Shown piece after piece: positions 109-15,606 of a stretch of 16,020 nucleotides of DNA (positions are counted from its first letter, which is position 1; the number at the start of each line of letters is the position of its first letter). The stretch comes from a virus. Location: UHGV virus genome UHGV-0044882, one strand, 5' to 3'. The notes beneath the pieces were generated by a model that had not been told where the DNA came from, did no database searches, and saw only the letters and a list, made by a program, of their open reading frames with translations. A program made the translations under genes and the position numbers.

Positions 109-942
109 TCAGCAATTGGTCAGAGTGTCAGCGGGGGCGTTACCGCCTGTTGCACGCTGGCGGTAGTCCTGGCGGCTGTCTTCATGACTCAGCTTGTCCA
201 CCAGTTCGTTAAAGGCGGTTTGCTGTGCCTGCAGGGCAGTCTCCAGCTCAGACAGGCGTTCTTCCTGCTCAGACAGGGATTTTTCGGTGCGTGCGCTCAG
301 GTTCTGCTGCTCAGTGGCGACCAGCTCCACGGCCTTATGCACATCAGAGAACCGGGCGTCATCGGACTGCTCTTTTTTGGTAAACAGCGCCGTGACGCGG
401 GCAAACAGGGACGGTTTGTCGTCCTGGACTTCTTCCAGTTCGATCACCGTTTCCTCTGCGGCGGTAAAGAGATTGGCGGGATTCTGCTTGCGGTTTGCCA
501 GCGGGTTATGGGCTGCACTGGCGCTGAATGTCAGCATTTCAGTGCCCAGACTGGCAGGGTCATCAGTGGCAGCCAGGCCGACCAGGTAGGCTTTGCCCGT
601 ATCAGCGAACTTCGGGCTGACTTCCATAGAGGTGAATAATTTCTGGCCTTTTTTCACCAGTTCCACCAGGGACTCCGTTGGCTCAACGTCAGCATACAGC
701 GCCATCTTGCCTGCCAGCGGACCTTCCGTGATTTCTTCAGCAAACAGCGCCGTCACCTTGCCGTAGCGGTTAAAGGTGCTGTCCGGCAGATAAGACTTGA
801 TGTGCTCAAGGTTAATCAGCGCGGTATACACCGCCGGGTTATAGCTGGCTGCCATCTGTTCCAGCCATTCACGCTGGATTTCGCGTCCGTCGGTGGTGGC
901 ACCTTCCACCCCGATGCGAAAACGCTTTGCTTTCACTGTCAT
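109..942 (-). CDS. O: Capsid scaffolding protein gpO
   Basis: 277 aa with RIGVEG..DGR, INLEH, YLVGLAATDDPASLGTE and C-terminal ATGG..C motifs typical of the P2 gpO scaffold family. ATG at 942..940, GGAG about 8 nt upstream. Confidence 0.9.
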   Translation of the reverse strand: MTVKAKRFRIGVEGATTDGREIQREWLEQMAASYNPAVYTALINLEHIKSYLPDSTFNRYGKVTALFAEEITEGPLAGKMALYADVEPTESLVELVKKGQKLFTSMEVSPKFADTGKAYLVGLAATDDPASLGTEMLTFSASAAHNPLANRKQNPANLFTAAEETVIELEEVQDDKPSLFARVTALFTKKEQSDDARFSDVHKAVELVATEQQNLSARTEKSLSEQEERLSELETALQAQQTAFNELVDKLSHEDSRQDYRQRATGGNAPADTLTNC

Positions 943-1084: not shown

Positions 1085-2851
1085 ATGAACACCACACTGA
1101 CACCCGCAGATCTCGATCCCCGTCGGCAGGCCATGCTGCTGTACTTTCAGGGATACCGCGTAGCCCGCATTGCTGAAATGCTGGGCGAGAAAGTTGCAAC
1201 CGTTCACAGCTGGAAAAAACGCGACAAGTGGGGTGACTATGGGCCGCTGGATCAGATGCAGCTCACCACCGCCGCACGCTACTGCCAGCTCATTATGAAG
1301 GAGCACAAAGAAGGGAAAGATTTCAAAGAGATTGACCTGCTGGCGCGCCAGTCGGAGCGCCATGCGCGGATCGGCAAGTTTAACAATGGCGGCAACGAAG
1401 CCGACTTAAACCCTAACGTCGCCAACCGCAACAAAGGCCCGCGCCGTCAGCCGGAAAAGAACGTTTTCACCGATGAACAGATTGAGAAGTTGGAAGAAAT
1501 CTTCCATTCCTCCATGTTCAACTACCAGCGCCACTGGTGGGAAGCCGGAAAAACCAACCGCATCCGCAACCTGCTGAAGTCACGCCAGATCGGCGCGACC
1601 TTCTATTTTGCCCGTGAAGCCCTGATTGACGCCCTGCTAACCGGGCGTAACCAGATTTTCCTTTCCGCCAGCAAGGCTCAGGCCCACGTCTTTAAGCAGT
1701 ACATCATCGACTTCGCCAAAGAAGTGGAGGTGGAGCTGAAAGGCGATCCGATGGTGCTTCCTAACGGGGCCACGCTGTACTTCCTCGGCACCAATGCCCG
1801 CACGGCCCAGAGTTACCACGGCAACCTGTATCTGGATGAATATTTCTGGATACCGAAATTCCAGGAGCTGCGCAAAGTGGCTTCCGGTATGGCTATTCAC
1901 AAAAAATGGCGACAAACCTATTTTTCCACGCCATCCAGCCTGACACACAGTGCTTATCCGTTCTGGTCCGGTGCGCTGTTCAACCGAGGGCGCAACAAAG
2001 CCGATAAGGTGGACATCGACCTGTCCCACAGCAATCTGGCCCCCGGCCTGCTGTGCGCAGACGGGCAGTACCGCCAGATAGTCACTGTGGAAGATGCGGT
2101 GCGCGGCGGCTGTAACCTGTTCGACCTCGACCAGTTGCGCATGGAGTACAGCCCGGACGAATACCAGAACCTGCTGATGTGTGAGTTCGTGGACGATCTC
2201 GCGTCTGTGTTCCCACTCAGCGAGCTGCAGGCGTGCATGGTGGACAGTTGGGAAGTCTGGACCGACTTTCATGCACTGGCCCTGCGCCCGTTTGGCTGGC
2301 GCGAAGTGTGGATCGGATATGACCCGGCGAAAGGTACGCAGAACGGCGACAGCGCCGGATGCGTGGTGGTGGCGCCGCCAGCCGTGCCGGGCGGTAAGTT
2401 CCGCATTCTTGAGCGTCACCAGTGGCGCGGAATGGACTTCCGCGCCCAGGCTGACGCCATCAAAAAACTGACCGAACAGTACAACGTGACCTATATCGGT
2501 ATCGACTCAACCGGCGTTGGTCACGGGGTTTACGAGAACGTGAAAGCGTTTTTTCCTGCCGTCCGGGAGTTTGTCTACAACCCCAACGTTAAAAACGCCC
2601 TGGTACTCAAGGCCTACGACATTATCAGCCACCGCCGTCTGGAGTTTGACGCCGGACACACCGACATAGCGCAGTCCTTTATGGCAATCCGTCGCGCCAC
2701 CACCGCCAGTGGCAACCGCCCGACCTATGAAGCCAGCCGCAGCGAAGAAGCCAGCCACGCCGATCTGGCCTGGGCAACGATGCACGCACTGTTTAACGAA
2801 CCGCTGCAGGGCGAATCCGCCAATACCAGCAATATTGTGGAGATTTTTTGA
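1085..2851 (+). CDS. P: Terminase ATPase (large) subunit gpP
   Basis: 588 aa, matching P2 gpP in length and position (upstream of Q, divergent from O). Stop TGA 2849..2851 overlaps the Q ATG at 2851. Confidence 0.9.
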   Translation: MNTTLTPADLDPRRQAMLLYFQGYRVARIAEMLGEKVATVHSWKKRDKWGDYGPLDQMQLTTAARYCQLIMKEHKEGKDFKEIDLLARQSERHARIGKFNNGGNEADLNPNVANRNKGPRRQPEKNVFTDEQIEKLEEIFHSSMFNYQRHWWEAGKTNRIRNLLKSRQIGATFYFAREALIDALLTGRNQIFLSASKAQAHVFKQYIIDFAKEVEVELKGDPMVLPNGATLYFLGTNARTAQSYHGNLYLDEYFWIPKFQELRKVASGMAIHKKWRQTYFSTPSSLTHSAYPFWSGALFNRGRNKADKVDIDLSHSNLAPGLLCADGQYRQIVTVEDAVRGGCNLFDLDQLRMEYSPDEYQNLLMCEFVDDLASVFPLSELQACMVDSWEVWTDFHALALRPFGWREVWIGYDPAKGTQNGDSAGCVVVAPPAVPGGKFRILERHQWRGMDFRAQADAIKKLTEQYNVTYIGIDSTGVGHGVYENVKAFFPAVREFVYNPNVKNALVLKAYDIISHRRLEFDAGHTDIAQSFMAIRRATTASGNRPTYEASRSEEASHADLAWATMHALFNEPLQGESANTSNIVEIF

Positions 2852-3885
2852 TGGGAAAGAGTAAGAAGAACCGCGCTGCGGCGACGAAACAGATCCAGCT
2901 TAAAAGTCAAACTACAGCCGAAGCATTCAGCTTCGGCGATCCCGTTCCTGTTCTGGACCGCCGAGAACTGCTGGATTATGTGGAATGCGTACAGATGGAC
3001 CGTTGGTATGAGCCGCCCGTCAGCTTTGACGGACTGGCGCGCACCTTCCGCGCCGCCGTGCATCACAGTTCCCCGATTGCAGTAAAGTGCAACATTCTGA
3101 CCAGTACCTATATCCCTCATCCGCTGCTCAGCCAGCAGGCTTTTTCGCGTTTTGTGCAGGACTATCTGGTATTTGGTAACGCCTACCTGGAGAAACGCAC
3201 GAACCGATTCGGTGAAGTTATCGCTCTTGAGCCTGCGCTTGCAAAATACACCCGACGCGGATTAGACCTAGATACCTACTGGTTTGTGCAATACGGTATG
3301 ACAACCCTGCCGTATCAGTTCACGAAAGGCAGCATTTTTCATCTGATGGAACCGGACATCAACCAGGAGATCTACGGCCTGCCCGGTTATCTTTCTGCCA
3401 TTCCGTCAGCCCTGCTCAACGAGTCCGCCACGCTGTTCCGCCGCAAGTATTACATTAACGGTAGCCATGCAGGCTTCATCATGTATATGACCGATGCCGC
3501 GCAGAACCAGGAAGATGTGAACAACCTCCGCAACGCAATGAAAAGCGCCAAAGGCCCTGGCAACTTCCGCAATCTGTTTATGTACTCGCCTAACGGCAAA
3601 AAGGACGGACTTCAGATTATCCCGTTGTCAGAGGTCGCAGCGAAGGATGAGTTTTTGAATATCAAGAACGTGAGTCGGGATGACATGATGGCAGCACATC
3701 GTGTGCCGCCGCAAATGATGGGGATTATGCCGAGTAATGTTGGGGGGTTTGGGGATGTGGAGAAAGCCAGCCGCGTCTTTGTTCGCAACGAGTTGATACC
3801 TCTGCAGAAGCGCCTTCAGGAATTGAACGACTGGCTTGGAGAAGAAGTCATGCGTTTTGAAGATTATAATTTAGGTATTGAATGA
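2851..3885 (+). CDS. Q: Portal (capsid portal vertex) protein gpQ
   Basis: 344 aa from ATG 2851 (the track's first M is TTG at 2848), the same length as P2 gpQ. Translationally coupled to P (TGATG). Confidence 0.88.
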   Translation: MGKSKKNRAAATKQIQLKSQTTAEAFSFGDPVPVLDRRELLDYVECVQMDRWYEPPVSFDGLARTFRAAVHHSSPIAVKCNILTSTYIPHPLLSQQAFSRFVQDYLVFGNAYLEKRTNRFGEVIALEPALAKYTRRGLDLDTYWFVQYGMTTLPYQFTKGSIFHLMEPDINQEIYGLPGYLSAIPSALLNESATLFRRKYYINGSHAGFIMYMTDAAQNQEDVNNLRNAMKSAKGPGNFRNLFMYSPNGKKDGLQIIPLSEVAAKDEFLNIKNVSRDDMMAAHRVPPQMMGIMPSNVGGFGDVEKASRVFVRNELIPLQKRLQELNDWLGEEVMRFEDYNLGIE

Positions 3886-3954: not shown

Positions 3955-4620
3955 TTAAAGATCCGGATCTACAGGCTCATGATATAGATTTACAGGGTAA
4001 TGAATAACTTCATAATTCAGTTGAGTAACTGTGTGAACATGCTGGCTATAAAAAACCAATGGATTTTTTTGACAAGGAGTAATCGTTATAGATTTACAGG
4101 CATGAATTCTTGGTGCGAATTTATCTAAATGCGCCTTCCAGTTGCTCATCATTTCATTACATTTTCTATTACGAGTATAGATAATCAATCCACCACTTGC
4201 GCTGTCTACGGTCCCTGTACTATATCGTTCAGTGAGTTGAGCATACCCTTTAAATAAATAACTATATGAAGATGTATGTTTTTTGGCTTCGCCATGCCAA
4301 ATATAATCCTTTAGTTTTATTGTAATATCACAATGTCCGCGCTGATTATTTTCATGAAATGCTTCAATGCCCATATCTTTATTTTTGATATTGGCCAATA
4401 AAATTAAAGTAAGCTGATCTTCTGTTAAATCGAAGTTTAACTTATTTGAATTCTCTTCTATTTCCTTTACAGCAGAATCAAGTTCAATCCTGACAAATTG
4501 TTTGAAATTATCGTACGATTGAAGTGCAAATCTAACACGAGTAATAGAAGCATTAATACGCTGAAGAAAAATATCATTATCAATATCAGCCAAACTCATT
4601 GCTGCAGACATTTTTAACAT
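3955..4620 (-). CDS. Hypothetical protein, third gene of the AT-rich operon; weak PD-(D/E)xK-like nuclease motif
   Basis: 221 aa, ATG 4620..4618 overlapping the stop of the upstream gene (ATGA), stop TAA 3957..3955. Segment GHCDITIKLKDYIWHGEAKKH has a D then E-x-K spacing compatible with a PD-(D/E)xK core; this is inference by eye, not a domain hit. Confidence 0.6.
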   Translation of the reverse strand: MLKMSAAMSLADIDNDIFLQRINASITRVRFALQSYDNFKQFVRIELDSAVKEIEENSNKLNFDLTEDQLTLILLANIKNKDMGIEAFHENNQRGHCDITIKLKDYIWHGEAKKHTSSYSYLFKGYAQLTERYSTGTVDSASGGLIIYTRNRKCNEMMSNWKAHLDKFAPRIHACKSITITPCQKNPLVFYSQHVHTVTQLNYEVIHYPVNLYHEPVDPDL

Positions 4621-5054
4621 CAGATAATATCCTTTGATTTAGATTCATCTAATGTAAAAAAAGGAAATACGAATGACTTATAGTCATACATAAGCTCCCC
4701 TGTAAATGGGTTTGCTAAAGATTGACTGATTTCCGCCTCAATAACTTCCTCTATTTCAAGTTCTACAGGGTCATGAAAATCATCAATGAACCAATAATTG
4801 AGTTTTAAAAAATCAACCTTTGGGCTACAAAGAATTTGTATGGCCGGATAGATAACCTGCTCATACGTTTCTGGCTGTAAAACCTTATTATAACCACCAG
4901 CTATATTAAATAAATCCTTATAACTTAAGGCTATATTTGATGATTTTTTAGCCCTTGCCTCGATTTCATCGTACAAATAGCAAGCTAACGCCCCAATTTC
5001 AGGGCGTTCTGCACACATTTCTTTGATGATCTTGGGCATATCACCATCCTTCAT
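4620..5054 (-). CDS. Hypothetical small acidic protein, middle gene of the AT-rich operon
   Basis: 144 aa from ATG 5054..5052 (track lists a TTG start at 5066). GGAG 7 nt upstream. Stop TGA overlaps the start of the downstream gene at 4620. No recognisable motif. Confidence 0.55.
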   Translation of the reverse strand: MKDGDMPKIIKEMCAERPEIGALACYLYDEIEARAKKSSNIALSYKDLFNIAGGYNKVLQPETYEQVIYPAIQILCSPKVDFLKLNYWFIDDFHDPVELEIEEVIEAEISQSLANPFTGELMYDYKSFVFPFFTLDESKSKDII

Positions 5055-5066
5055 TGCTGACTCCAA

Positions 5067-6173
5067 TTATAATATCAGCTTTGTGAGGGTTTCGAAATCA
5101 TCTTTGGATATACATTTACTTAATATAGCATAGTTAACAGGAGAGCAACTACTCCCTCCTAGATGCCTGCGGAGTGTTCCCGGAATGATAAGCTCTACGT
5201 TATCCGCTAATTGCAGTTTTGGATTATTTCTATCAACTCTAATTCCAATACGATACAAACCAATACTGCCTACTGCTTTGATGCCTTCCTTATTAAACAA
5301 ATCATCACGTAAGTCTTTAGTGGCCACATTTTTCTTTTCTTTATGCGTAGTCCCCTCATTCGTCAAAAATGACAAATCAAAGACTTTATAGCTTAATTTT
5401 GAATAAGGCAATGAATTTTGTTTGAAAATTAGCTCAATTAACGGATAAAAATCTTTTTCCGATGATTTAAATTCATAACCGACATGATTATACAATTCAC
5501 GAATAATGTTACTCTTTGCAAAAGTAACATTATCACCAATAATATTACCATTAGTATCTACCAAAACATGAATTTTATTAGTAACAGAGTCTAATATACA
5601 GACATCAAAACATTGTCGCTTTTCTTTTCGCTTTGCAATAATTTCATCAAACTGCTTGTATTGCGCAAGTGCTGACGGGGGAATTTTTTCTCTTACAACT
5701 AATTCTCTGACAGATGAAAAAACAAGTATTGACTGGGTGTTTTGAATAGAATAATTAACAAGTTCAGGTTGATTTTTTACAGCATTTTGCAATTGGACAT
5801 CATCAAGGATCGAATCAACCAATAATGATGGTTGATTCATCAAATTCCATTGAAAACTAAATCTGTCATTTAGTGTTTTAATTACACTATTATCTACAGT
5901 CAAACTAAATATTGCTTTTTCACCATAAACGACCTGACCAAAAATTAGGTCATTTACGTTTGCCATAATGCCATCAAACTTTTGCCTATCTTTACTTTTA
6001 AGATCAATGAGGCTTTCTAGTATTTTTTCGTTTGTTGCTTCACGCCCCCTACCTGTTGGCAGCCCTAAAGACGCAATAATTGGCCTTGCAACGTTCCATG
6101 TGAAACGTTCAGTTAAGGTCAAGATCGACTTTAACTCAGACTCAGAAAGCACTACTGGGACACTACCTGTCAT
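5067..6173 (-). CDS. Hypothetical protein, first and largest gene of the AT-rich operon
   Basis: 368 aa from ATG 6173..6171 (track lists GTG at 6182), AGGTG 7 nt upstream, stop TAA 5069..5067. No Walker A, HExxH or nucleotidyltransferase motif found by eye. Confidence 0.62.
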   Translation of the reverse strand: MTGSVPVVLSESELKSILTLTERFTWNVARPIIASLGLPTGRGREATNEKILESLIDLKSKDRQKFDGIMANVNDLIFGQVVYGEKAIFSLTVDNSVIKTLNDRFSFQWNLMNQPSLLVDSILDDVQLQNAVKNQPELVNYSIQNTQSILVFSSVRELVVREKIPPSALAQYKQFDEIIAKRKEKRQCFDVCILDSVTNKIHVLVDTNGNIIGDNVTFAKSNIIRELYNHVGYEFKSSEKDFYPLIELIFKQNSLPYSKLSYKVFDLSFLTNEGTTHKEKKNVATKDLRDDLFNKEGIKAVGSIGLYRIGIRVDRNNPKLQLADNVELIIPGTLRRHLGGSSCSPVNYAILSKCISKDDFETLTKLIL

Positions 6174-6322
6174 AACTTGCACCTAGTCATCCAAAAAGCA
6201 ATAAGAATTTGCTCTTGTCTTAATTTATCCTTCGATACCTAACAAATTACCTCAATGTTGAAAAAATTTGCAAGCCATTTGCTTCTAAAAAGCGACCTTA
6301 CTCAGAGTGTTACAAAACTAAG

Positions 6323-6351
6323 CGAGCGCGCGCTCGTATCCCCGCCACGCC
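6323..6351 (-). other. Candidate cos (cohesive end) site with adjacent GC palindrome
   Basis: Reverse complement of 6333..6351 is GGCGTGGCGGGGATACGAG. Its first 13 nt match the 186 cohesive end as I recall it (GGCGTGGCGGGGAAAGCAT); 14 of 19 match P2 (GGCGAGGCGGGGAAAGCAC). The G-rich strand is the one expected downstream of Q. A 14-bp palindrome cgagcgcgcgctcg sits at 6323..6336. Confidence 0.45.
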
Positions 6352-6372
6352 TGCCCGCTTTGTGTAGTGGTT

Positions 6373-6476
6373 TTCATGCAGGTGCATGACATAAGCAAAA
6401 GCCCGCCAGAACTGGCGGGCCTGCATCAAAACGATCCTCAAACGATCATGCGTTCTCATGCAGCATAGTCATGCAC
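6373..6476. repeat. Cluster of short iterated motifs beside the cos-like site
   Basis: TCATGCA(G/C) at 6374..6381, 6456..6463 and 6469..6476, plus an inverted copy at 6383..6390 forming a dyad with the first. AAACGATC direct repeat at 6429..6436 and 6440..6447. Confidence 0.4.
6396..6420 (-). terminator. Rho-independent terminator, minus strand
   Basis: Stem gcccgccag / ctggcgggc (6401..6420). On the minus strand it is followed by TTTTGCTTAT. Confidence 0.45.
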
Positions 6477-6637
6477 GGATGAGAGAAATGAATGCGCGTA
6501 TCCAAATGCCCGTTAGAAAAACGCAGATGAACTAAAAAAGCTTAAGGTCTACTATGAGCGAGAAACGGACATTTAATTTTCGAGTAGTGGAAATCGAAGC
6601 CAGTACCTGCCGGAGCCATAGTATCGAAACCACGAAC

Positions 6638-6664
6638 AATAAAAAGCCTGGAAATATCCAGGCT
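6638..6664 (-). terminator. Rho-independent terminator after the oxidoreductase gene
   Basis: Stem agcctgg / ccaggct with loop aaatat (6645..6664). On the minus strand it is followed by TTTTTAT, 36 nt after the stop at 6700. Confidence 0.6.
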
Positions 6665-6699
6665 GCGCAAGACTCATTTATAGAATGCTGCGGTAAGGA

Positions 6700-7692
6700 T
6701 TACTCAACGGTCACAACTATTTTGCCGACCTGTCCATTGGACTCCATATAGCGCTGGGCGTCTGCAATCTCTTCGAACGGGAACGTCTTATCGATGACCG
6801 GCTTCAGTTTGCCGACTCGCAAGCCTTCTGTGATAAAGGATTTAGCGCGCGCCATTTTTTCAGAGTCCGTCGTGATTTCAAACAGCTCATATCCACGCAG
6901 GGTGAGATGCTTACCGAGAATATCAAATACAGGCACAAGCATGTCACGGCTATCGAGCGCGCCGTACTGGAAAAACATACCCTGTGGTGCCATCACCTGC
7001 GTCAGTTTTGCCACGTCCGGCCCACCGACGGGATCAAAAACAATATGGGCACCTGCGCCATCTGTTGCACGACTGATTTCAGCAACCATATCCTGCTCCG
7101 CAGTAGCAATGACGGCGGCTGCGCCAGCTTTAAGGAGCATTTCGCTTTTTTCAGAGGTCCGTGTGAGTGCAATTGGGTTTGCACCCAGCATGTTAGCAAT
7201 CTGTATGGCAGCCAGACCCACGCTGCTTGATGCTGCGCGGATCACGACATTCTGACCAGCCTGAAGGTTGCCATACTCAACCAGCGCACCATAAGCGGTG
7301 ACATACATCATCCAGCTTGCGGCGGCTTCCTCGAATGAAAGGTTTTCAGGATGCTTTACGACAGCATGAACCGGTGCGTTGACCACTTCACCATACATGC
7401 CGTATTCATTAAACATAAATGAAGGGATCACGCTTACCCGATCTCCAGTGGTAAACTCATCTACATTCTCACCTACTGCCTGTACAACGCCGGCCGCTTC
7501 ATAACCAAGACGTGCCGGAAATTCCGGCTCAATAACATATTGGCCGTTGCGGTACATGATTTCTGCACGGTTGATACCTATCGCATGTACGCGGATCTGC
7601 ACTTCACCCGCTGTCGGTGCAGGCACCTGCACATCAACAACTTCCAGCACTTCCGGGCCACCGGTGCGGTTAAAGGTAATAACTTTAGACAT
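6700..7692 (-). CDS. MDR-superfamily NAD(P)H:quinone oxidoreductase-like (zinc-type alcohol dehydrogenase family)
   Basis: 330 aa from ATG 7692 (track TTG at 7698). N-terminus MSKVITFNRTGGPEVLEVVDV and a Gly-rich nucleotide-binding stretch AASSSVGLAAIQ resemble E. coli Qor-type quinone reductases. Confidence 0.85.
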   Translation of the reverse strand: MSKVITFNRTGGPEVLEVVDVQVPAPTAGEVQIRVHAIGINRAEIMYRNGQYVIEPEFPARLGYEAAGVVQAVGENVDEFTTGDRVSVIPSFMFNEYGMYGEVVNAPVHAVVKHPENLSFEEAAASWMMYVTAYGALVEYGNLQAGQNVVIRAASSSVGLAAIQIANMLGANPIALTRTSEKSEMLLKAGAAAVIATAEQDMVAEISRATDGAGAHIVFDPVGGPDVAKLTQVMAPQGMFFQYGALDSRDMLVPVFDILGKHLTLRGYELFEITTDSEKMARAKSFITEGLRVGKLKPVIDKTFPFEEIADAQRYMESNGQVGKIVVTVE

Positions 7693-7841
7693 ATTCAACT
7701 CTCTTCAGTTAAAGGCACACCTTCAGAATAATGCCGAAGGGATGCCCGAATCATTTGTGAACAATCTACGTTGTTACGAACACACCAGAAATAGCTGAGA
7801 GGGAACTTCAGTATTAATTATCCATTAACAATCCGCCTGCT

Positions 7842-8744
7842 TCAGCGGATCTGCGTGGCCAGAATATCACTGAACCAGTCGATAAAGACGCGCACTTTTG
7901 GAGAAAGGTAGCGCCTGTCGGGATACATCACTGACACGGGCTTTGACACCGATGGGTATTGCGGCAGAATCTCTTCAAGAGCGCCGGAAGCAATATGGGG
8001 AGCAACGGCATCATAGGTAGCCTGGATAATGCCCAGACCAGCCAGAGCACAAGAAAGCAGAATATCGGAATTATCAACCAGCAGGCTGCCCGCAGGACGT
8101 AGCGAAACAATGCTCCCGTCTTCGATAAACTTCCATTCCATGACGTCACGACTGTGGTCGCTAAAAAAGTTAATTGCCCGATGTTTATCCAGATCCGCAA
8201 GTGTTTCTGGCCGCTCATGCTGCTGCAGGTAAGACGGGGCTGCACAGGTAACCATCCGGATGTCACCAAGACGTCTGGATATAAAACTAGAATCTTGAAG
8301 CGCCCCCAGGCGGACAAGGCAATCTACGCCTTCCGTAATCAAATCAGTTTTTTTATCGGAAGAAACCAGCACAACTTCAATACCTGGATACAGTGCCTGA
8401 AAATGCCTGAGATTAGGGATCAATATGGAATGCGCCAGCGCCAGGGGCACATCAAGTCTCAGGCGTCCTCGCGGTGGAAGTGTCGGTGAAAAACTGGCCA
8501 TCATGTCATTAACTTCGGCCAGAACATGCCTAGCATGATGATAGAACTCATCCCCTTCAGCAGTAACGCTCAGCTTTCGGGTTGTGCGATAAATGAGTTT
8601 TACACCCAGATCATGCTCTATCTGCTGTATCGCTTTGCTCACAGTGGGGCGATGAATCTGAAGTACATCAGCAGCTTTCGTGAAGCTACCCTGCTCAACA
8701 ACCTGTATGAAAATATTTAGGTATTCAATCATGTTGGCATGCAC
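7842..8744 (-). CDS. LysR-family transcriptional regulator (LTTR)
   Basis: About 300 aa. N-terminal HTH signature VVEQGSFTKAADVL..PTVSKAIQQIEHDLGVKLIYRTTRKLSVTAEG followed by a co-inducer domain. Start is GTG 8744 (AGGTGA 5 nt upstream) or ATG 8732. Confidence 0.85.
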   Translation of the reverse strand: MHANMIEYLNIFIQVVEQGSFTKAADVLQIHRPTVSKAIQQIEHDLGVKLIYRTTRKLSVTAEGDEFYHHARHVLAEVNDMMASFSPTLPPRGRLRLDVPLALAHSILIPNLRHFQALYPGIEVVLVSSDKKTDLITEGVDCLVRLGALQDSSFISRRLGDIRMVTCAAPSYLQQHERPETLADLDKHRAINFFSDHSRDVMEWKFIEDGSIVSLRPAGSLLVDNSDILLSCALAGLGIIQATYDAVAPHIASGALEEILPQYPSVSKPVSVMYPDRRYLSPKVRVFIDWFSDILATQIR

Positions 8745-8966
8745 GTGCTCACCTGTTTTGTAGGCTGTTCAAAACCGACATTGTAAAGTAAACCATCCCA
8801 ACGACATTATTTCTTTTCGTTCAGATAAGGGCTTTCTGACTGTCACAATGTCCACTTCTGGCACAAAGCGGACGACCATTTTCAAATGGCCGTCGCATCT
8901 AACACCTCGTTTCACTCATTGTTCAACCTTACCCCCATCAGAAGGAATTCTTTCGGGGGCAACGTT

Positions 8967-9200
8967 TCAGTGTAACCAGCTGTCGTCTTCCCAGACCTGC
9001 TGCAGAATTTCCATTACACGTTCCTTATCTTCAGCCTGTCTTACCCCGCTAAGTTCAATACCATTGGCGCTGCCCTTGCGGATTCGGATAGCTGTTTTTG
9101 GGTAGAGGGGGCGCAAATTTCGGTAAAGCTCGGATTCAAGTGCTTCTAAAAGCACCTGGCTAATTTTCTGCTCTTTATCGATCATTATTTCAATGCGCAT
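8967..9200 (-). CDS. DinI-family protein
   Basis: 77 aa from ATG 9200 (MRIEIMIDK..). Aligns by eye with E. coli DinI along its length, including the C-terminal EILQQVWEDDSW versus DinI EILQETWESADDW. SD AGGGGA upstream. The track ORF extends to 9245, but the internal ATG fits the family. Confidence 0.8.
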   Translation of the reverse strand: MRIEIMIDKEQKISQVLLEALESELYRNLRPLYPKTAIRIRKGSANGIELSGVRQAEDKERVMEILQQVWEDDSWLH

Positions 9201-9210
9201 AGATTTTCCC

Positions 9211-9399
9211 CTAACAGGTAACGTCCATTGTTCGGCTGTATTCATGGTTGCGGATTTTCGCCATCAGCTCGTCAGTCAGCTCGGAAACCCACTGGATGGC
9301 CAGCCCCTTCTCTTCATCACTACACTCACTAGCCGCTACAAGCTTAAGAAAAAAATCAATGCGCTGGAGCTTCAAAGACTCCAAAAAATAGTCCTGCAT
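9211..9399 (-). CDS. Small SOS-regulated protein; possible Tum-like antirepressor N-terminal module
   Basis: 62 aa, ATG 9399..9397 with strong SD AGGAGG 5 nt upstream. Lies directly downstream of a LexA operator; stop TAG is 10 nt before the DinI-like ATG. Function inferred from position only. Confidence 0.5.
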   Translation of the reverse strand: MQDYFLESLKLQRIDFFLKLVAASECSDEEKGLAIQWVSELTDELMAKIRNHEYSRTMDVTC

Positions 9400-9425
9400 C
9401 TTTCCTCCTATGACACCAAAACAAT

Positions 9426-9459
9426 ACTGTATATATAATCACTGTTTATATTTACAGTA
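9426..9459. promoter_or_regulatory. LexA operator (SOS box): one perfect box plus an overlapping imperfect box
   Basis: 9442..9457 ctgtttatatttacag is a perfect CTGT-N8-ACAG. 9426..9445 tactgtatatataatcactg matches the left half of the consensus, with the right half CAC instead of CAG. Confidence 0.7.
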
Positions 9460-9482
9460 TATAATAATCTTACTGATGTAAA
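9456..9482 (-). promoter_or_regulatory. Candidate sigma70 promoter of the SOS operon, overlapped by the LexA box
   Basis: Minus strand: -35 TTTACA (9482..9477), 15-nt spacer, -10 TATACT (9461..9456), with the -10 overlapping the CTGT of the perfect LexA box. Spacer is short, so the assignment is approximate. Confidence 0.4.
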
Positions 9483-9551
9483 ACGTTTTTTTACGTTCAT
9501 CAGCCTGATATGCCTGGTATTATTAAGAGCACGAATTGTTAACCCGCGTAA

Positions 9552-11972
9552 TTAATACAGCTCCCGCCACTTATCATCTTCCTGCAAACGCTGGTTCCGA
9601 TAGAAGATACGCAGGCCTGCTCCTGACGGAATACTGCCGCCGCAAAGGAGTAAATCGACTTCTTTCTCGCTGCCATCAAATCCTCTGGACTTCAGTTCAT
9701 AGACGAGCTGCTGTCGCTGATGGTCTGTAATTCGCTGTTTGTAGTCTTTACGCCGTTTCGGTTTCACCTGGCGTAACCTTGCAGCCAGTTCCCGGCGCTC
9801 TTTTTTGCTCATACTGTGCAGGTAATCGTGCAACTCCTTGTCATCCATGCGGGTAATGTCCGTTCTGGTATCCCCATCAGCTGATTTGTCGTTCCCTTGT
9901 TGGCTCAAATTTTCAGCAAGGGGACAGTTATTGCCACGAGTCCGAGTCCAAGGGGCGCAAGCGCCCTGGTCGGCTGCCGCCTCCTGAACGTCAACGGCCT
10001 TACGAACCATTTTCCACTTCACGGCATGAGTGCAGATCTTGCCCTCTGCAATAGGTGACCAGATGCCATAAATACGAATGCCGTGATCGCCATAGACGGT
10101 CGGCTCTTCGTTGATTTCATAAGCAGTTCTGATGAGGTGATATTTGCGGGGAACCAGTACGCCACCCTGCTTCATGATGTAGGTGGCAAAACAACCAGCA
10201 TCAGCAGCAGCCAGAATGGCATCAAGGCGCGGGTTATCCAGTACCGGCGCACCTGCTTTTTTGTCCCCCTGTTGCCTTGCCGCCTGACCAGCCAGCAATC
10301 GCAGTTCACGGTAAGCCTGACGCCCCGGAATGCCAAAGAAGCGGAATTGCTGAACACGATGCAGAGACGCCCAGGCATTAACGTATTCAGCATTCTCACG
10401 CAGGGATTTCCCCGTTTCCTTGCTGATCTCGCCAGCCAGACCACGCCCGTCAATGTTCTTACTGATGTATTTCGCGATGTAGCTTGTTGGCGTACCTTTG
10501 CGCGGGTTAATCAACTCAGACTTAAAGCGCGGCCCAGTGTTATTGCCCAGCTCCTCGCGGTCTTCACGGATGGCAAACTTACGCAGTAATGCAGTGATGG
10601 TGCGGCGGTCTTTTTTGCGCATAAAACACAACAGGTGCCAGTGAACTGTACCGTCATGATGCGGCTCAGCCACCCGCACGCCATACCACCGCAATCCGGC
10701 TTTGTGCATCGCCTTACGAAATGCAGCAAACATGCCGACCAGATAATCACTGCTTTGTCTTACCGTCGCATTTGTCCAGGTTGGGTTGGGCCTGCCGTTA
10801 TTTAGCGTGGAATGGAAACGTGACGGACAGGTGATGGTGTAGAAAACGGCGCAGTCACCGCGCATTTCCGCGATAAGCTCCAGACCTTTAACACAGGCCA
10901 TCATCTCATTGCGGCGATGCGCCGGGTTGCTGCTGCTGGCGTTTACCACATCCTCCATGTCCAGCGTGTCGCCCTCTTCGTTCACCAGTTCATGAGAACG
11001 GAAAAACTCCAGCGACTTACGGCGCTGCTCACGTTTATGCATCACGGCTTCATAGCTGACATAAGGAGATGCTTTTTTGCTGACAAGGCAGACTGCACGC
11101 AACTGCTCTTCCCGCCATTCGCAACGCATCTTCCATAATTTCCGATACCACCAATCGGCGCACAACATACGCGCCAGCGAACCCGGAATGAGTTCATAGG
11201 GCACGGGTTTACGGCGGTTTCTTTTCCGACGGAGTTGCTCAAACGCAGGCGGGATGACATCCAGACGCAGGGTTTCCGCTGCCACCCTTTCCCATGTATT
11301 GCGGATTTCTTCTGGCTTAACGTCATCGGTGGCATACAAATCGCCACAAGCGGCATCAAGGCACATACTCATATGCGCAGCTACCAGGGTGGACAGGCGT
11401 TTCACCTGATCCTGACTCATTTCAGGCAGGATCAGCAGGCCGTCCAGCCCTTCATGGCTTGCCATAAAGCGAAAAGATGCAGATAGCTGACTGTCGCGTA
11501 CATGCTCCAGTCGTTCCAGACATGGCTTAATCGTCTCACGTAAATAGCGGGAATAAGCCTTTGGCCTGCCCAGGCTGCTGAAGTATTCAATACGTTGCAT
11601 CAGCGGCTTGCTGATATGGGAAGGCTGGGCGTTGACGTCCGCCAGAATGACCATATCCGGATTAAAACGCTGCTGCTCATGCGCCAGCTTTGCCCGACTA
11701 ATGAGCTTATCCTGTTCCATTTCGCGCTGGACAGGATCACGGGATTCATTAAAGAAATAACGCTCCCAGACCTGATCACTCAGCGCCTCACGGCGCAGCT
11801 GTTCCTGCTCGTTATCGGCAGCGTACAGAGTGATCAGGTTTGAAAGCGTAGAAACCGGCGCAACTTCCACCGGGTCCAGATAAGGGTTAATGGCCTTTTT
11901 CGGGCTGTTCCATGAGAACGATGCGGCAGCTTCGTTAAAGCCGCAGCAGTTGTTCATATCGGCATGACTCAT
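9552..11972 (-). CDS. A: Replication initiation protein gpA (rolling-circle nicking endonuclease)
   Basis: 806 aa at the position of P2/186 gene A. Contains a paired-tyrosine segment YIAKYISKN of the kind found in gpA-type initiators. ATG 11972 overlaps the Dam stop. Confidence 0.85.
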
Positions 11973-12826
11973 GCACGTACTCCGTACACGGCAGAACTAT
12001 CCACGCCACGCGAATAATCAAATCCCACCCAGCAGCGCGGCCCGGAAACAGCAATGATTTCTGTTGCTGATTTACCCTCGCCAGCTGCCACACCGATGCT
12101 GCGTTTTGCCTTGATGTAGTGGTGAGTAAAATTGCGATACAGCGAACGGATCAGGGATGTGTCACTGTTAGAAACAATGACCGGATGTCCTTCTGATGAC
12201 CGATGTTCAAGAACAGATGCCAGGTGATACTGGTCATCTTCAGTGAAGCCGTCAGTGTGATAGCCGGAAAACGTACCGTCATACGGCGGATCGCAATACA
12301 CCACATCCCCCGCCTTCAACATCGCCAGCGTTTCATCAAAGCTGGCGCAGATAAACGTTGCTCGCTGGGCCTTTTCTGCAAATGCGCGAATTTCTTTTTC
12401 AGGGAAATACGGATTTTTATAATTACCGTAGGGAATGTTGAAATGCCCGCTCTTGTTATAGCGACATAAACCACGGTAACCGTGACGATTGAGATACAGG
12501 AAATATACCGCTTTCATGAAATCAGTAATTTCAGTGGAGTAATTAAACTCCTGCCTTATGTTGTAATAAGCCACCTCCCTGTTTGCGATCTCAAATAAAA
12601 CTCTGGCGCGAGATATAAACGATTCACAATCAGCGGCAACCTTTTTATAGAGGTTTATTAAATCAGGATTAATATCCGCAACCAGATAGCTGGGGTAATC
12701 CGTCTCCATCATCACAGCACAGGAACCCGCGAAAGGTTCAACCAGTCGCGGGCCAGCAGGAAGGTGTTTTTTCAGTTCGGACATAATGGCGGTTTTATTT
12801 CCCGCCCATTTCAGGATGGTGCTCAT
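11969..12826 (-). CDS. dam: Dam-type DNA N6-adenine methyltransferase (orphan)
   Basis: 285 aa from ATG 12826 (the track ORF starts 20 codons upstream). Motifs [16 protein letters not shown] (AdoMet site), [15 protein letters not shown] and catalytic DPPY align with E. coli Dam as recalled. GGAGGTG SD upstream. Confidence 0.9.
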
Positions 12827-13050
12827 ACAGCACCTCCGTTGTAATGTTTGCCTTTCAGCTCTGCGATTTCCTGGCAGGTAATGCAAAGATGCACTCCCGG
12901 AATGGCGCGGCGTCGTGCTGGCGGAATTGGCGCTTCACATTCAATACAAAGCACGCGAGACACGCCCGGTGTTTTGGCACGGGCAGCACGAATATGGCGC
13001 TGGCGTTCTTCTTCAACGCGCTGCTGTACGAGATCCATTGCATCAGCCAT
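12823..13050 (-). CDS. TraR/DksA-family C4-type zinc-finger protein
   Basis: 75 aa with CIECEAPIP and CITCQ (CxxC-N17-CxxC), typical of phage and plasmid TraR-like proteins. Stop overlaps the Dam ATG; start overlaps the stop of the upstream ORF. Confidence 0.75.
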   Translation of the reverse strand: MADAMDLVQQRVEEERQRHIRAARAKTPGVSRVLCIECEAPIPPARRRAIPGVHLCITCQEIAELKGKHYNGGAV

Positions 13051-13283
13051 TAGTGGATCTCCTGCGCTTCGTTCTGGATTGCTTCAGCAGTTACACGCAG
13101 TAGTTCTGCCGCTTCGACGTGGTTTAGCTGGCGGGATGTGATATGACACGCCAGGCTATCAAGGCGAGCTGCCATTGCTTCTGCCCTTGCCCGGCGTTCT
13201 TCCAGACGAGCCTCTGTCAGTAAAATATTAAGCCCTGCGTCATCCGGTCCGGTTTTAGTCGTGAGGGTTTCAATATTACGCAT
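13050..13283 (-). CDS. Hypothetical early-operon protein
   Basis: 77 aa from ATG 13283 (track TTG at 13289), SD AGGAGA 8 nt upstream. Stop overlaps the TraR-like start. No recognisable motif. Confidence 0.5.
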   Translation of the reverse strand: MRNIETLTTKTGPDDAGLNILLTEARLEERRARAEAMAARLDSLACHITSRQLNHVEAAELLRVTAEAIQNEAQEIH

Positions 13284-13350
13284 AATCAATTCTCCTGAAT
13301 TTAGATAAAGGGATGTCCGGCGGGTTTACGCCATTAATTTCATTAGTTGG

Positions 13351-13692
13351 TTAATTCGGCATGGTTAGCCGTCTGGGAAATAAGCTCACCACTGCACGAA
13401 AATGATTCATTGCTTTAATCAGCTCCCGCTTTTCGTCAGTGGTCAGCTCATTAATGCTGATGCTATGACGTTCAGCTGGAATTTTTGCCATAAAGAATAT
13501 GGCAGCCAGTGCCCGTTTATTTTGTTCATTATTGATATCCCGTGGATCACGCATATCTTTAATAAACCGCTCAAGCTCTGACTCAATATTCAGGCCAAAA
13601 ACTTTCGCCCTTAACTCCGCAATGTGATTAAGTCCATTCAGGCGTTCACCGGGGCTTAATGGAACAGTTGCTGCAGCGCCATTAATTGCCAT
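13351..13692 (-). CDS. Hypothetical early-operon protein
   Basis: 113 aa, ATG 13692 with a G-rich SD upstream. No recognisable motif. Confidence 0.5.
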   Translation of the reverse strand: MAINGAAATVPLSPGERLNGLNHIAELRAKVFGLNIESELERFIKDMRDPRDINNEQNKRALAAIFFMAKIPAERHSISINELTTDEKRELIKAMNHFRAVVSLFPRRLTMPN

Positions 13693-14891: not shown

Positions 14892-14974
14892 AAGGCAACA
14901 TTCCTTCTAGATATGGCTTGTGGCGAGCCGTTGTTTGTCGTGATTAGTAGTGAAGGCTCCAAAAGAACACTTCT

Positions 14975-15009
14975 GGTTCAACTTTAAGATCGCTTTTGGA
15001 ATCTGTCAA
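14975..15009 (-). promoter_or_regulatory. Candidate early lytic promoter (pR/Pe equivalent)
   Basis: Minus strand: -35 TTGACA (15009..15004), 17-nt spacer, -10 TAAAGT (14986..14981). Sits 28 bp upstream of the cI start and points toward apl, as in the 186 face-to-face switch. Confidence 0.4.
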
Positions 15010-15036
15010 CGAATTTTGGATTTCTTTGGAGGACTT

Positions 15037-15606
15037 GTGGATTTCAATAGCGGCGGTAAGAAAGCCATAGAACGTTTAGTTGAAGCATATGGGTTCGGTA
15101 CCCGTCAGGCTCTCTGTGATCATTTAGGTGTTTCTAAGAGCACCATGGCAACGCGCTATATGCGTGATATTTTTCCAGCAGATTGGGTAATCCAGTGCGC
15201 CCTTGAAACGGGCACCTCGCTTAATTGGCTAACAACAGGGCATGGTTCAAAGCAAGCATCAGCAAATACAAATACTATGGAAGTTGCTAAATATGTATTA
15301 TCTGATGGGGCCTTGTGTGAAGACGGTTTTTATATTTTCGATAGGGAATTTCTACCGTCGGCATTCAAGAATATTTTTGCAATCACAGATAATAATTCTG
15401 AATTTATTTGTGATAAGGAATTTGATGATATACGTGATGGTAAATGGGTAATAAGTATTGATGGCGAAATAACGATCCGTGACATTACTCGTTTACCCGG
15501 TGGAAGAATCTTCGTCGAGGGTGGAAACAGAGCCTTCGAATGCAAGATAGAAGACATTGAAATAATTGGTAAAATTATAAGTTTAACAGTCAAGTATGTT
15601 AAATAG
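15037..15606 (+). CDS. cI: CI-type immunity repressor (186 CI family)
   Basis: 189 aa from GTG 15037 with GGAGGA 4 nt upstream (the longest ORF starts at GTG 14950). N-terminal HTH region [23 protein letters not shown] and a C-terminal oligomerisation-type domain. Length is close to 186 CI (192 aa). Confidence 0.72.

Follow-up and report, generated by a model that had tools for sequence, protein, structure and literature searches.

The LysR-reductase gene pair described here is probably a self-contained bacterial two-gene module that was captured as cargo in the gpA-gpQ hotspot of an E. coli 186/Fels-2-like prophage. A LysR-type activator would come first, and the second gene, 149 bp downstream, would encode a zinc-free reductase that uses NAD(P)H. 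The window, i.e. the whole stretch of DNA that was analysed, is 16,020 nucleotides of UHGV virus genome UHGV-0044882.

Insertion in the prophage

The pair lies inside a 186/Fels-2-like (Peduoviridae) E. coli prophage, between cos and the LexA-controlled tum/dinI operon. The prophage has Pfam matches to Phage_GPA, Phage_CI_repr, Phage_CI_C and DinI, and carries gpO, gpP, gpQ, gpA and a 186-type CI repressor. The phage features around the pair are:

6326 to 6476, unstranded: phage cos flank, about 90% identical to vB_EcoM-813R9, Fels-2 and SopEPhi
6337 to 6351, unstranded: cos core, GGCGTGGCGGGGATA, a unique match
6422 to 6399, minus strand: phage terminator-like hairpin within the cos flank (terminator scan)
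8967 to 9200, minus strand: DinI-family gene, second half of a split tum (Pfam DinI, phrog_189)
9211 to 9399, minus strand: 62-aa gene (orf62) in the antirepressor-half position of the split tum (phrog_698)
9442 to 9457, unstranded: LexA box upstream of orf62 and the DinI gene (tum/dinI operon), CTGTTTATATTTACAG, the sole match in the window with 0.17 expected

The 62-aa gene is also found in Fels-2, SopEPhi and vB_EcoM-813R9, and a split tum has been described for Fels-2 and PSP3 (PMC3121763). The tum/dinI operon and the cassette are on the same strand.

Phage vB_EcoM-813R9 is 95% identical to the window over gpP/gpQ and over dinI to gpB. Phage-homologous DNA borders the pair at either end, with the cos flank to one side and the dinI region from position 8915 to the other, which bears out an earlier, sequence-only reading that placed the pair inside the prophage between cos and the SOS module. 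That reading also proposed a comparison with related phages lacking the pair. The two flanks are 24 bp apart in vB_EcoM-813R9 versus 2438 bp (2.44 kb) in the window, and the pair is present in none of the 58 phage records matching the flanks. Fels-2 and SopEPhi have other cargo at the equivalent place. The location is the known cargo hotspot of P2-like phages, the cos-proximal gpA-gpQ region or old/tin locus (Rousset et al. 2022, PMC9122126; NAR 2026, PMC13586616). The portal-to-cos half of the hotspot in the window holds a separate low-GC, three-gene candidate system. The host-like GC content ascribed to the pair is uninformative. GC content is 48.8% in the cassette, 47.6% in the window as a whole and 44-55% among the phage genes, so base composition does not discriminate a foreign origin of the cassette.

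The reductase and its regulator

The genes and the terminator of the module are:

6700 to 7692, minus strand: MDR-superfamily quinone-oxidoreductase-type reductase, 330 aa (Pfam ADH_N, ADH_zinc_N, ADH_zinc_N_2)
7842 to 8732, minus strand: LysR-type transcriptional regulator (LTTR), 296 aa (Pfam HTH_1 and LysR_substrate)
6645 to 6664, minus strand: intrinsic-terminator-like hairpin and T-tract of the cassette (terminator scan), conserved in orthologous cassettes

Both genes are intact and co-oriented, with the regulator upstream and a spacer of 149 bp, as had been read from the sequence (about 150 bp). The pair also has its own downstream terminator, as claimed; the hairpin, read from 6664 to 6645, lies 36 bp past the MDR stop codon.

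The MDR open reading frame spans 6700-7698, with a likely ATG start at 7692. Its Pfam architecture (PF08240, PF00107, PF13602) combines a GroES-like ADH_N domain with a Rossmann ADH_zinc_N domain, as expected for the branch. Among proteins of solved structure it is closest to zeta-crystallin (1yb5, E 9e-45), VAT-1, PIG3 and E. coli Qor, and the alignment is full-length to 1yb5, 2j8z and 1qor (E 9e-45 to 5e-35). Zeta-crystallin, Qor and PIG3 share this architecture and also lack the zinc ligands. The protein differs from PIG3 and Qor in scoring under the cut-offs of their models, with 233.5 bits against 296.8 for TIGR02824 (PIG3) and 155.5 bits against 348 for NF008024 (Qor). It also has the nucleotide-binding motif AASSSVG, versus the usual G-rich form. 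The protein contains no cysteine, therefore the classical zinc sites are absent. Zinc alcohol dehydrogenases carry GxCHxD and GHE motifs, and the MDR protein reads GINRAE and GYEAAG at these positions. By its sequence, the enzyme is a zinc-free member of the quinone-oxidoreductase branch of the MDR superfamily, which makes a quinone- or electrophile-reducing role reasonable.

The regulator open reading frame spans 7842-8744, with a likely ATG start at 8732. The protein has the N-terminal winged-helix HTH domain (HTH_1, PF00126, residues 7-64, E 1.6e-19), the C-terminal substrate-binding domain (LysR_substrate, PF03466, residues 91-293, E 4.6e-38) and the length of about 300 aa that define an LTTR. 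The closest NCBIfam models are YafC and AaeR, with scores under their equivalog cut-offs, and the PDB relatives are 3mz1, Neisseria CrgA (3hhg) and AphB (3szp). CrgA controls the quinone reductase gene mdaB, from which it is divergent, and the MdaB enzyme is of the flavodoxin-like type, outside the MDR superfamily. A divergent arrangement of an LTTR and its target, with autoregulation through the shared control region, is usual for the family but not obligatory. It is absent here, where the regulator is upstream of the MDR gene and co-oriented with it.

Distribution and exchange of the pair

Representatives of about 20 species, as far as Burkholderia, have kept the tandem LysR-MDR layout together with its spacer. 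The pair occurs in many genera, on chromosomes as well as plasmids; it is common on Klebsiella chromosomes and is also chromosomal in Kluyvera, Erwinia and others. The co-oriented layout, which the sequence-only reading had set against the usual divergent one, is thus not special to this prophage. Judged from these loci, the tandem arrangement is ancestral and was not created by the capture. A variant of at least 90% identity occurs on at least 1000 Klebsiella contigs. The pair has no conserved gene neighbours; the largest neighbour cluster reaches 5 of 20 loci, and both its position and its orientation vary among them. More distant enzyme orthologues (61-64% identity) have a divergent LysR gene adjoining, therefore the link between regulator and target recurs. 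The orthologues of the pair are under purifying selection, with dN/dS of 0.03-0.14 (0.03-0.11 for the MDR gene and 0.08-0.14 for the LysR gene). In E. coli the pair is rare, occurring in 3 of 5426 complete genomes and in none of these within a P2-like prophage, so that a benefit, if there is one, would not be general. It is absent from 50,697 deposited phage records.

The unit that is shared with other mobile elements is:

6512 to 8873, minus strand: LysR-MDR cassette, 2.36 kb

The cassette is 99.2% identical to a copy in the tRNA-Phe island of E. coli G3/10, an integrative island in which the pair adjoins a restriction endonuclease. It is 100% identical in six prophages (L010, L011, L012, L015, L018 and L019) whose backbones differ by up to 25%; in L011, gpA is 80% and dam 75% identical. 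Since the cassette is fully identical in diverged backbones, its exchange between phages was recent. At least seven E. coli P2-like prophages, these six and L070, have the DinI-LysR-MDR-cos arrangement, and on the far side of cos they carry six different cargos. Four of them (L010, L012, L018 and L019) have lost structural genes while the cassette is still intact. Spread of the module between diverged P2-like phages would occur by recombination in the conserved flanks.

It is possible, if doubtful, that the pair is a neutral passenger, swept into the hotspot by illegitimate recombination without benefit to phage or lysogen and intact perhaps from recent capture alone. The full identity of the prophage copies points to a spread so recent that the cassette had little time to decay. 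The rarity of the pair in E. coli and its absence from phage records are also consistent with a passenger, as are the filler DNA at the junctions and a flanking repeat that is truncated on one side, which are typical of imprecise capture. However, the cassette sits in diverged backbones beside different cargos and has therefore been transferred or retained repeatedly. Its persistence in the four prophages that lost structural genes and the strong purifying selection on the orthologues likewise argue against a neutral passenger.

Ends of the cassette

The ends and junctions are as follows:

6506 to 6570, minus strand: REP/BIME-like composite repeat at the MDR-distal end, with unit2 at 6547-6570 and a degenerate unit1 at 6506-6532
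8850 to 8873, minus strand: REP-like unit1 hairpin at the LysR-proximal end
6477 to 6511, unstranded: junction filler on the cos side, matching neither the empty-site phage nor the island copy
8874 to 8914, unstranded: junction filler on the dinI side, holding most of the hairpin 8871-8894

Plasmids of Pantoea, Enterobacter and Klebsiella carry multiple copies of the REP/BIME-like element. Neither junction filler has a meaningful match in phage records. The hairpin at 8871-8894 is strong, with a 10-bp stem, but has a poor U-tract, and could limit read-through from the tum promoter. The flanking 24-nt hairpins were compared by eye with the motifs of other elements and rejected as integron attC sites (no R''/R' cores), Xer/dif sites (no dif-like arms), a sigma-54 promoter (no TTGC at -12) and transposon inverted repeats. 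A further copy of the pair is in a lambdoid prophage; its site in other E. coli strains holds a flxA-like gene and a hypothetical gene and provides no empty site.

These repeats allow for another, unlikely explanation. The 2.3-kb LysR-reductase unit would be a recombinase-less mobile cassette bounded by REP/BIME-like two-hairpin repeats, and recombination at the repeats would carry it between an integrative island, prophages of two kinds, plasmids and chromosomes. Because the unit landed between dinI and the phage terminator in the P2-like prophage, it could receive read-through from the LexA-controlled tum promoter, so that DNA damage would switch on a quinone/electrophile reductase in lysogens.

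Predicted control region

The candidate control elements of the two genes are:

7714 to 7746, minus strand: conserved stem-loop (RNAalifold) in what is predicted to be the 5' leader of the MDR transcript
7760 to 7775, unstranded: inverted repeat AACAATCTACGTTGTT, overlapping the -10 hexamer and unsupported as an LTTR box
7763 to 7768, minus strand: predicted -10 hexamer TAGATT of the MDR promoter (conservation), with a predicted start near 7756 and a weak -35
7810 to 7832, minus strand: candidate LTTR recognition site of the T-N11-A type, ATTGTTA-N9-TAATACT, centred at 7821, 65 bp upstream of the predicted start
8780 to 8794, minus strand: conserved block upstream of LysR with a -10-like TACAAT, GGTTTACTTTACAAT, kept across genera

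A simple sigma-70 consensus scan finds no promoter in either upstream region, therefore the promoters of both genes are placed by conservation only. The T-A-x-x-x-T pattern at 7763-7768 is kept in 27 of 27 orthologous spacers, Burkholderia included, and the column identity of the hexamer is 0.90 versus 0.70 for the spacer. From this conservation we infer that 7763-7768 is the -10 element of the MDR promoter. The block at 8780-8794 is likely the promoter of the regulator, carried by the cassette itself.

LTTR sites typically comprise a T-N11-A dyad about 65 bp upstream of the target start and a second site near -35. The arms of the dyad at 7810-7832 have identities of 0.94 and 0.86 among the orthologous spacers, and its 53-nt spacing from the -10 hexamer is conserved along with the arms and the hexamer. 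At the equivalent position Burkholderia has a perfect 23-nt palindrome, ATTGTTATTCGTCGAATAACAAT, from which the window's dyad differs by two mismatches. No other site in the 16-kb window matches with three or fewer mismatches, and chance alone predicts about one. There is no second copy of this box upstream of the regulator gene.

The sequence-only reading had instead proposed the dyad at 7760-7775 as a T-N11-A LTTR site, and it is very unlikely that this dyad is the operator of the reductase promoter. The dyad exists in the spacer as described, and one arm and the centre (CGTAGATTGT) are conserved. However, a dyad of this kind is at chance level, with three inverted repeats with 5-bp arms in the spacer versus 1.8 +/- 1.7 in shuffles, 76% of which hold at least one. 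Its symmetric pairs are A...T and not T-N11-A. The second arm varies freely among the 27 orthologous spacers (AGCAG, ACCAC, AGCGC, ACCCC), with an identity of 0.68 versus 0.70 for the spacer overall. The conserved arm overlaps the -10-like hexamer, and what is kept in every orthologue is the -10 signature. The far better conserved dyad 53 nt upstream is thus, on sequence conservation, the better candidate for the LTTR site.

The stem-loop in the predicted MDR leader has eight pairs, five with compensatory changes, and a modest energy. A scan of 6200-9600 against Rfam at a permissive threshold gives no match.

For the captured bacterial module, these elements suggest the following mechanism. 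The regulator would be made from the cassette-borne promoter near 8780-8794. It would bind as a tetramer to the T-N11-A dyad at -65 and contact a second site near -35 (7786-7795). The inducer would be a small molecule, most plausibly the quinone or alpha,beta-unsaturated carbonyl substrate of the enzyme. The inducer-bound regulator would then activate the MDR promoter with its weak -35, and the reductase mRNA would end at the cassette terminator. SOS-induced transcription from the LexA-controlled tum promoter may also read into the module, because it follows dinI with no canonical terminator in between and precedes the phage's own terminator. An inducible reductase, normally missing from E. 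coli, would be available to the lysogen.

Relation to known systems

The pair is an ordinary kind of phage extra-gene module. Like other P2 hotspot cargo, it is between gpA and the portal gene gpQ, beside cos, in a place where the content varies and modules are swapped between backbones. Unlike the usual cargo, it combines a regulator with a metabolic-type reductase, has no defence signature and occupies the cos-to-dinI half. The pair resembles the morons of temperate phages in its insertion between two genomic neighbours, dinI and cos, that are nearly adjacent in a relative, in its own terminator and in its conserved upstream region. It differs from them in that its base composition is not distinctive and in having two genes, including its own regulator.

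The layout also has a tandem precedent in mexT-mexEF-oprN of Pseudomonas aeruginosa, where the LTTR gene lies just ahead of its target and is read in the same direction (PMC2794183). A further gene activated by MexT is mexS, which probably encodes an oxidoreductase, and the MexT regulon has been proposed to serve detoxification (PMC2794183). The MexT system has an efflux pump, whereas the LysR-MDR pair has none. The MexT box ATCA-N5-GTCGAT-N4-ACYAT is different from the ATTGTTA-N9-TAAYAC of the pair.

An unrecognised role in anti-phage defence, the function of most gpA-gpQ hotspot cargo, is extremely unlikely for this pair. P2-like phages do have their main defence hotspot at this location (PMC9122126, PMC13586616), many hotspot genes without a defence annotation proved defensive, and the G3/10 copy adjoins a restriction endonuclease. 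However, no PADLOC model matches either protein of the pair, nor any of the three neighbouring cargo proteins. The layout is a standard one of LTTR plus enzyme from Enterobacterales to Burkholderia, and the abundance of the close variant in Klebsiella fits a housekeeping-like accessory enzyme and not a fast-turnover defence gene. The other half of the hotspot already holds the three-gene candidate system. That the window is a join of two elements, with the pair chromosomal here as in Klebsiella, Kluyvera, Erwinia and others, can practically be dismissed, since the phage DNA on both sides contradicts it, other contigs have the pair between dinI and cos inside prophages, and L012, L018 and L019 are bounded by int and ogr with E. 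coli chromosomal genes beyond.

Significance

The hotspot is best known for anti-phage systems. In this prophage it also holds a metabolic or stress enzyme from Enterobacterales chromosomes, together with its regulator. The analysis provides a corrected, predicted operator and promoter model for a widespread regulator-enzyme pair. It also improves the annotation of the enzyme, as the label 'zinc-dependent alcohol dehydrogenase' is wrong for a protein without cysteine. Should the pair indeed give lysogens inducible reduction of quinones or electrophiles, this would be a small, clean case of metabolic lysogenic conversion in E. coli.

The prophage and the position of the pair

The window covers part of a P2-type prophage (186/Fels-2 group) in reverse orientation. 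Its features are:

109-942, minus strand: gpO
1085-2851, plus strand: gpP terminase
2848-3885, plus strand: gpQ portal
3955-6182, minus strand: low-GC three-gene block
between the three-gene block and the DinI-family gene: cos region, then the LysR and medium-chain reductase (MDR) genes
8967-9200, minus strand: DinI-family gene
9211-9399, minus strand: 62-aa gene
9552-11972, minus strand: gpA, with the Dam methylase next in order
14950-15606, plus strand: 186-type CI repressor

Escherichia phage vB_EcoM-813R9 matches the window at about 95% identity over two segments, 1168-3806 and 8915-13509. The sequence GGCGTGGCGGGGATA (6337-6351), which has no second match in the window, is a cos core by comparison with P2 and 186. 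The 62-aa gene and dinI are preceded by a perfect LexA box, CTGTTTATATTTACAG (9442-9457; 0.17 expected by chance). Fels-2 and PSP3 carry the LexA-controlled tum gene of 186 in two parts, one for the antirepressor and one for DinI (PMC3121763). Therefore, the SOS module proposed beside the pair is real.

The sequence-only reading had taken the LysR-MDR pair to be cargo within the prophage. This main interpretation is correct and the observation behind it largely right, since phage DNA lies on both sides. Both ends of the interval 6200-9500 are matched by 58 phage records, with about 21% query coverage each, and none of these backbone-related records carries the LysR-MDR middle. The flanks of cos and dinI are only 24 bp apart in vB_EcoM-813R9, which has the empty site and defines the insert as 6477-8914. 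Fels-2 and SopEPhi have unrelated genes at the same place. The order dinI-LysR-MDR-cos is also seen within prophages on contigs from other assemblies, so the window does not join two elements with the pair on the chromosomal one. Three of these prophages (L012, L018 and L019) have int at one end, ogr at the other and E. coli chromosomal genes outside; one chromosomal flank is 100% identical to E. coli. The GC content, which had been called host-like, is uninformative either way (cassette 48.8%, window 47.6%, phage genes 44-55%).

The two genes

Both genes are intact and co-oriented on the minus strand. The regulator has HTH_1 and LysR_substrate domains, and the enzyme has ADH_N, ADH_zinc_N and ADH_zinc_N_2 domains. 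The RefSeq annotation of identical genes places the ATG starts at 8732 (regulator, 296 aa) and 7692 (enzyme, 330 aa), which gives a spacer of 149 bp. The pair also has the downstream terminator attributed to it, an 8-bp-stem hairpin followed by TTTTATTGTT (6664-6645, minus strand).

Full-length alignments link the enzyme to human zeta-crystallin (1yb5, E 9e-45), VAT-1, PIG3 (2j8z, 2oby) and E. coli Qor (1qor). Its scores against the PIG3 and Qor subfamily models are under the curated cut-offs. It contains no cysteine and has GINRAE and GYEAAG at the zinc alcohol dehydrogenase ligand positions; therefore, the annotation "zinc-dependent alcohol dehydrogenase family protein" is a superfamily label only. 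The nearest solved structures to the regulator are 3mz1, CrgA and AphB, and its nearest NCBIfam models are YafC and AaeR, all under cut-off. At the family level, the enzyme is predicted to reduce a quinone or activated alkene with NAD(P)H, and the putative inducer of its gene would be the reduced compound itself or a related one.

Predicted regulation of the pair

A dyad in the spacer had been proposed as a T-N11-A-type site for the LysR-type regulator (LTTR). The dyad, AACAATCTACGTTGTT, is present at 7760-7775, but its symmetry pairs A with T at spacings 6 to 14 and is not T-N11-A. Inverted repeats of this kind (5-bp arms, loop of at most 12) occur at chance level, with three in the spacer versus 1.8 +/- 1.7 in dinucleotide shuffles and at least one in 76% of the shuffles. 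Among 27 aligned orthologous spacers the AACAA arm changes to AGCAG, ACCAC, AGCGC or ACCCC, and its column identity is 0.68 versus 0.70 for the whole spacer. The centre and the other arm owe their conservation to TAGATT, which lies within them. Every spacer sequence keeps T-A-x-x-x-T (TAGATT, TAAATT, TAGAGT, TAGAAT, TACAGT or TACGAT), which is the pattern of a putative -10 hexamer. The dyad was therefore rejected as the operator.

The most conserved spacer block begins 10 bp past the regulator stop codon and reads ATTGTTA-ATGGATAAT-TAATACT (7832 to 7810, gene direction). Column identity reaches 0.94 in one arm and 0.86 in the other, and the block contains T-N11-A. Two Burkholderia loci, with a regulator about 51-52% and an enzyme about 62-65% identical, have ATTGTTATTCGTCGAATAACAAT, a perfect 23-nt palindrome, or ATTGTTATTCCCCGAATAACAAT at the same spacer position. 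A match to the Burkholderia palindrome as good as that of the window is expected about once per 16 kb by chance. The dyad centre (7821) is upstream of TAGATT and 53 nt from its first base in all aligned sequences. If the hexamer occupies -12 to -7, transcription would start near 7756 and the candidate dyad would be centred at -65, which Maddocks and Oyston reportedly gave in 2008 as the usual position of an LTTR recognition site. LTTR recognition and activation sites have been described (PMC11739112). A poor -35 region (TTTCTG) falls inside a conserved block, GCTATTTCTG (7795-7786), consistent with an activator-dependent promoter; a consensus scan of the spacer found no sigma-70 promoter. In the reductase mRNA, the 64-nt leader predicted from this start has a conserved stem-loop (7714-7746, minus strand) with compensatory changes at five of eight pairs, modest energy and no match in Rfam. 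Based on positional conservation, the candidate operator at 7810-7832 and the predicted promoter make a better model than the dyad at 7760-7775.

The cassette has the same orientation as the tum/dinI operon and lies between dinI and a hairpin-plus-T terminator of the cos flank (6422-6399), which follows dinI in the empty-site phages. A terminator scan of the minus strand from 9200 to 6664 found none, and folding of 8725-8975 gives three hairpins, one of them strong (8871-8894) and none with a good U-tract; therefore, read-through is possible. The LexA-controlled promoter may possibly read into the regulator and reductase. The strong hairpin (minus strand, 10-bp stem) is mostly junction DNA between dinI and the regulator and precedes CGCUUUGUG; some of the transcripts from the tum promoter might end there.

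Distribution and age of the pair

Copies with this order, orientation and 149-bp spacer occur in Klebsiella (chromosome, 85% identity), Pantoea (megaplasmid, 88%) and Lelliottia (IncFII plasmid, 90%, adjoining a Tn3-family transposase). In a scan of one genome per species, the enzyme occurs in about 25 Enterobacterales species and Aeromonas; Stutzerimonas, Burkholderia, Pasteurellaceae and Neisseria are among the groups with more remote relatives (about 70% to about 55%). A co-oriented regulator precedes the enzyme in about 20 species representatives, while four distant orthologues (61-64% identity) have a divergent LysR gene alongside instead. The latter (in Aggregatibacter, Neisseria, Testudinibacter and Oxalobacter; L047, L049, L050 and L051) is unrelated to the tandem regulator. 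Kluyvera loci (L036, L037 and L040) have lost the regulator and carry the enzyme beside a gene that, from its sequence, appears to encode adenosine deaminase. In a Pantoea insect symbiont (L041) the regulator is reduced to a fragment, and the regulator of Pantoea brenneri (L034) may be frameshifted. The genes neighbouring the pair are not conserved across the loci compared.

Both genes have dN/dS of 0.03-0.14. A variant in the same 90% cluster occurs on at least 1000 Klebsiella contigs, and the exact E. coli sequence on 89 contigs. Copies outside Enterobacterales, in Aeromonas eucrenophila (L046, enzyme 94% identical) and a Neisseriaceae MAG (L039, 84% identical), point to between-order transfer or, for the MAG, a contaminated bin. 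The pair is an old, self-contained unit. The co-oriented layout with LysR upstream is confirmed here, but it is ancestral, occurs on chromosomes and plasmids, and is not special to the phage. A well-studied precedent is mexT-mexEF-oprN, where the LTTR gene precedes a co-oriented target; its product MexT activates mexS too, which probably encodes an oxidoreductase (PMC2794183).

Only three of 5426 complete E. coli genomes have the pair, at sites other than the P2 hotspot. One copy (strain G3/10; 99.2-99.7% identity depending on the aligned span) is in a tRNA-Phe island beside a restriction endonuclease. The other two (L005, L006 9001-11263; database matches H85-H95; 94.9% identical) adjoin paoD/yagP at the tail-fibre end of a lambdoid prophage; therefore, the pair is cargo in a second, unrelated prophage type.

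Cassette ends

Between genera, similarity breaks off abruptly, about 130 bp before the regulator and 60-170 bp past the enzyme. The break falls at a REP/BIME-like composite of two 24-nt hairpins (gene direction: unit 2, GTCCGYTTCTCGCTCAYAGCGGAC; unit 1, GTCCGCTTTGTGCCAGRAGCGGAC), which flanks the cassette as direct repeats in most genera. The copies are:

8850-8873: regulator end, unit 1 only
6506-6570: enzyme end, unit 2 (6547-6570) and a degenerate unit 1 (6506-6532)
other loci: L007 4871-4886 and 7210-7225; L008 4873-4888

The composite is a dispersed repeat, with 393 places in 148 plasmid records and up to nine per Pantoea megaplasmid, and also occurs in Enterobacter and Klebsiella. Both cassette/phage junctions have short fillers without a meaningful match in phage records. 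The repeats suggest that the cassette may move by repeat recombination in genomes carrying them, and that its capture into the phage was imprecise. An empty site supporting such recombination was not found; the lambdoid slot of other E. coli strains holds different cargo, a flxA-like gene and a hypothetical gene.

Hotspot cargo and exchange between phages

The gpA-gpQ interval is a P2-like cargo hotspot holding mostly defence systems; its 18,150 occurrences in E. coli fall into 1,650 gene arrangements (PMC9122126; PMC13586616). Here cos splits it into a portal-to-cos half with the low-GC block and a cos-to-dinI half with the cassette. The low-GC block has three abutting minus-strand genes (371, 148 and 221 aa; 34% GC). 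Their proteins match nothing in Pfam, NCBIfam, PADLOC or deposited phage genomes and nothing meaningful in the PDB, and fall only into PHROG families of unknown function (12777, 11490 and 9664). In sister prophages this spot is occupied by SIR2 and an ATPase, by GmrSD or by a Hypoth_Ymh-domain protein. The block is a candidate for an uncharacterised anti-phage system. A defence function for the pair itself would suit its location in the P2 hotspot but is unlikely, since it has no PADLOC match, its layout is the standard metabolic one and it is very common in Klebsiella.

The cassette and cos flank (6326-8873) are 100% identical in six other prophages (L010, L011, L012, L015, L018 and L019) and 99.9% identical in an IMG/VR contig. 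Across these six and L070, identity to the window is 75-97% for gpA, dam and the portal gene (80%, 75% and 83%, respectively, in L011), and the other hotspot half is filled by six different cargos, SIR2 with an ATPase and GmrSD among them. An identical cassette in differing backbones beside differing cargos therefore indicates recent movement from one diverged phage to another, for which recombination within the conserved flanks at cos and dinI is the simplest route. Large deletions in structural or replication genes mark four of the seven related prophages (L010, L012, L018 and L019), all with dinI, the LysR-reductase pair and cos intact. The cassette is cargo of the known P2 hotspot, or a moron, of a kind already known.
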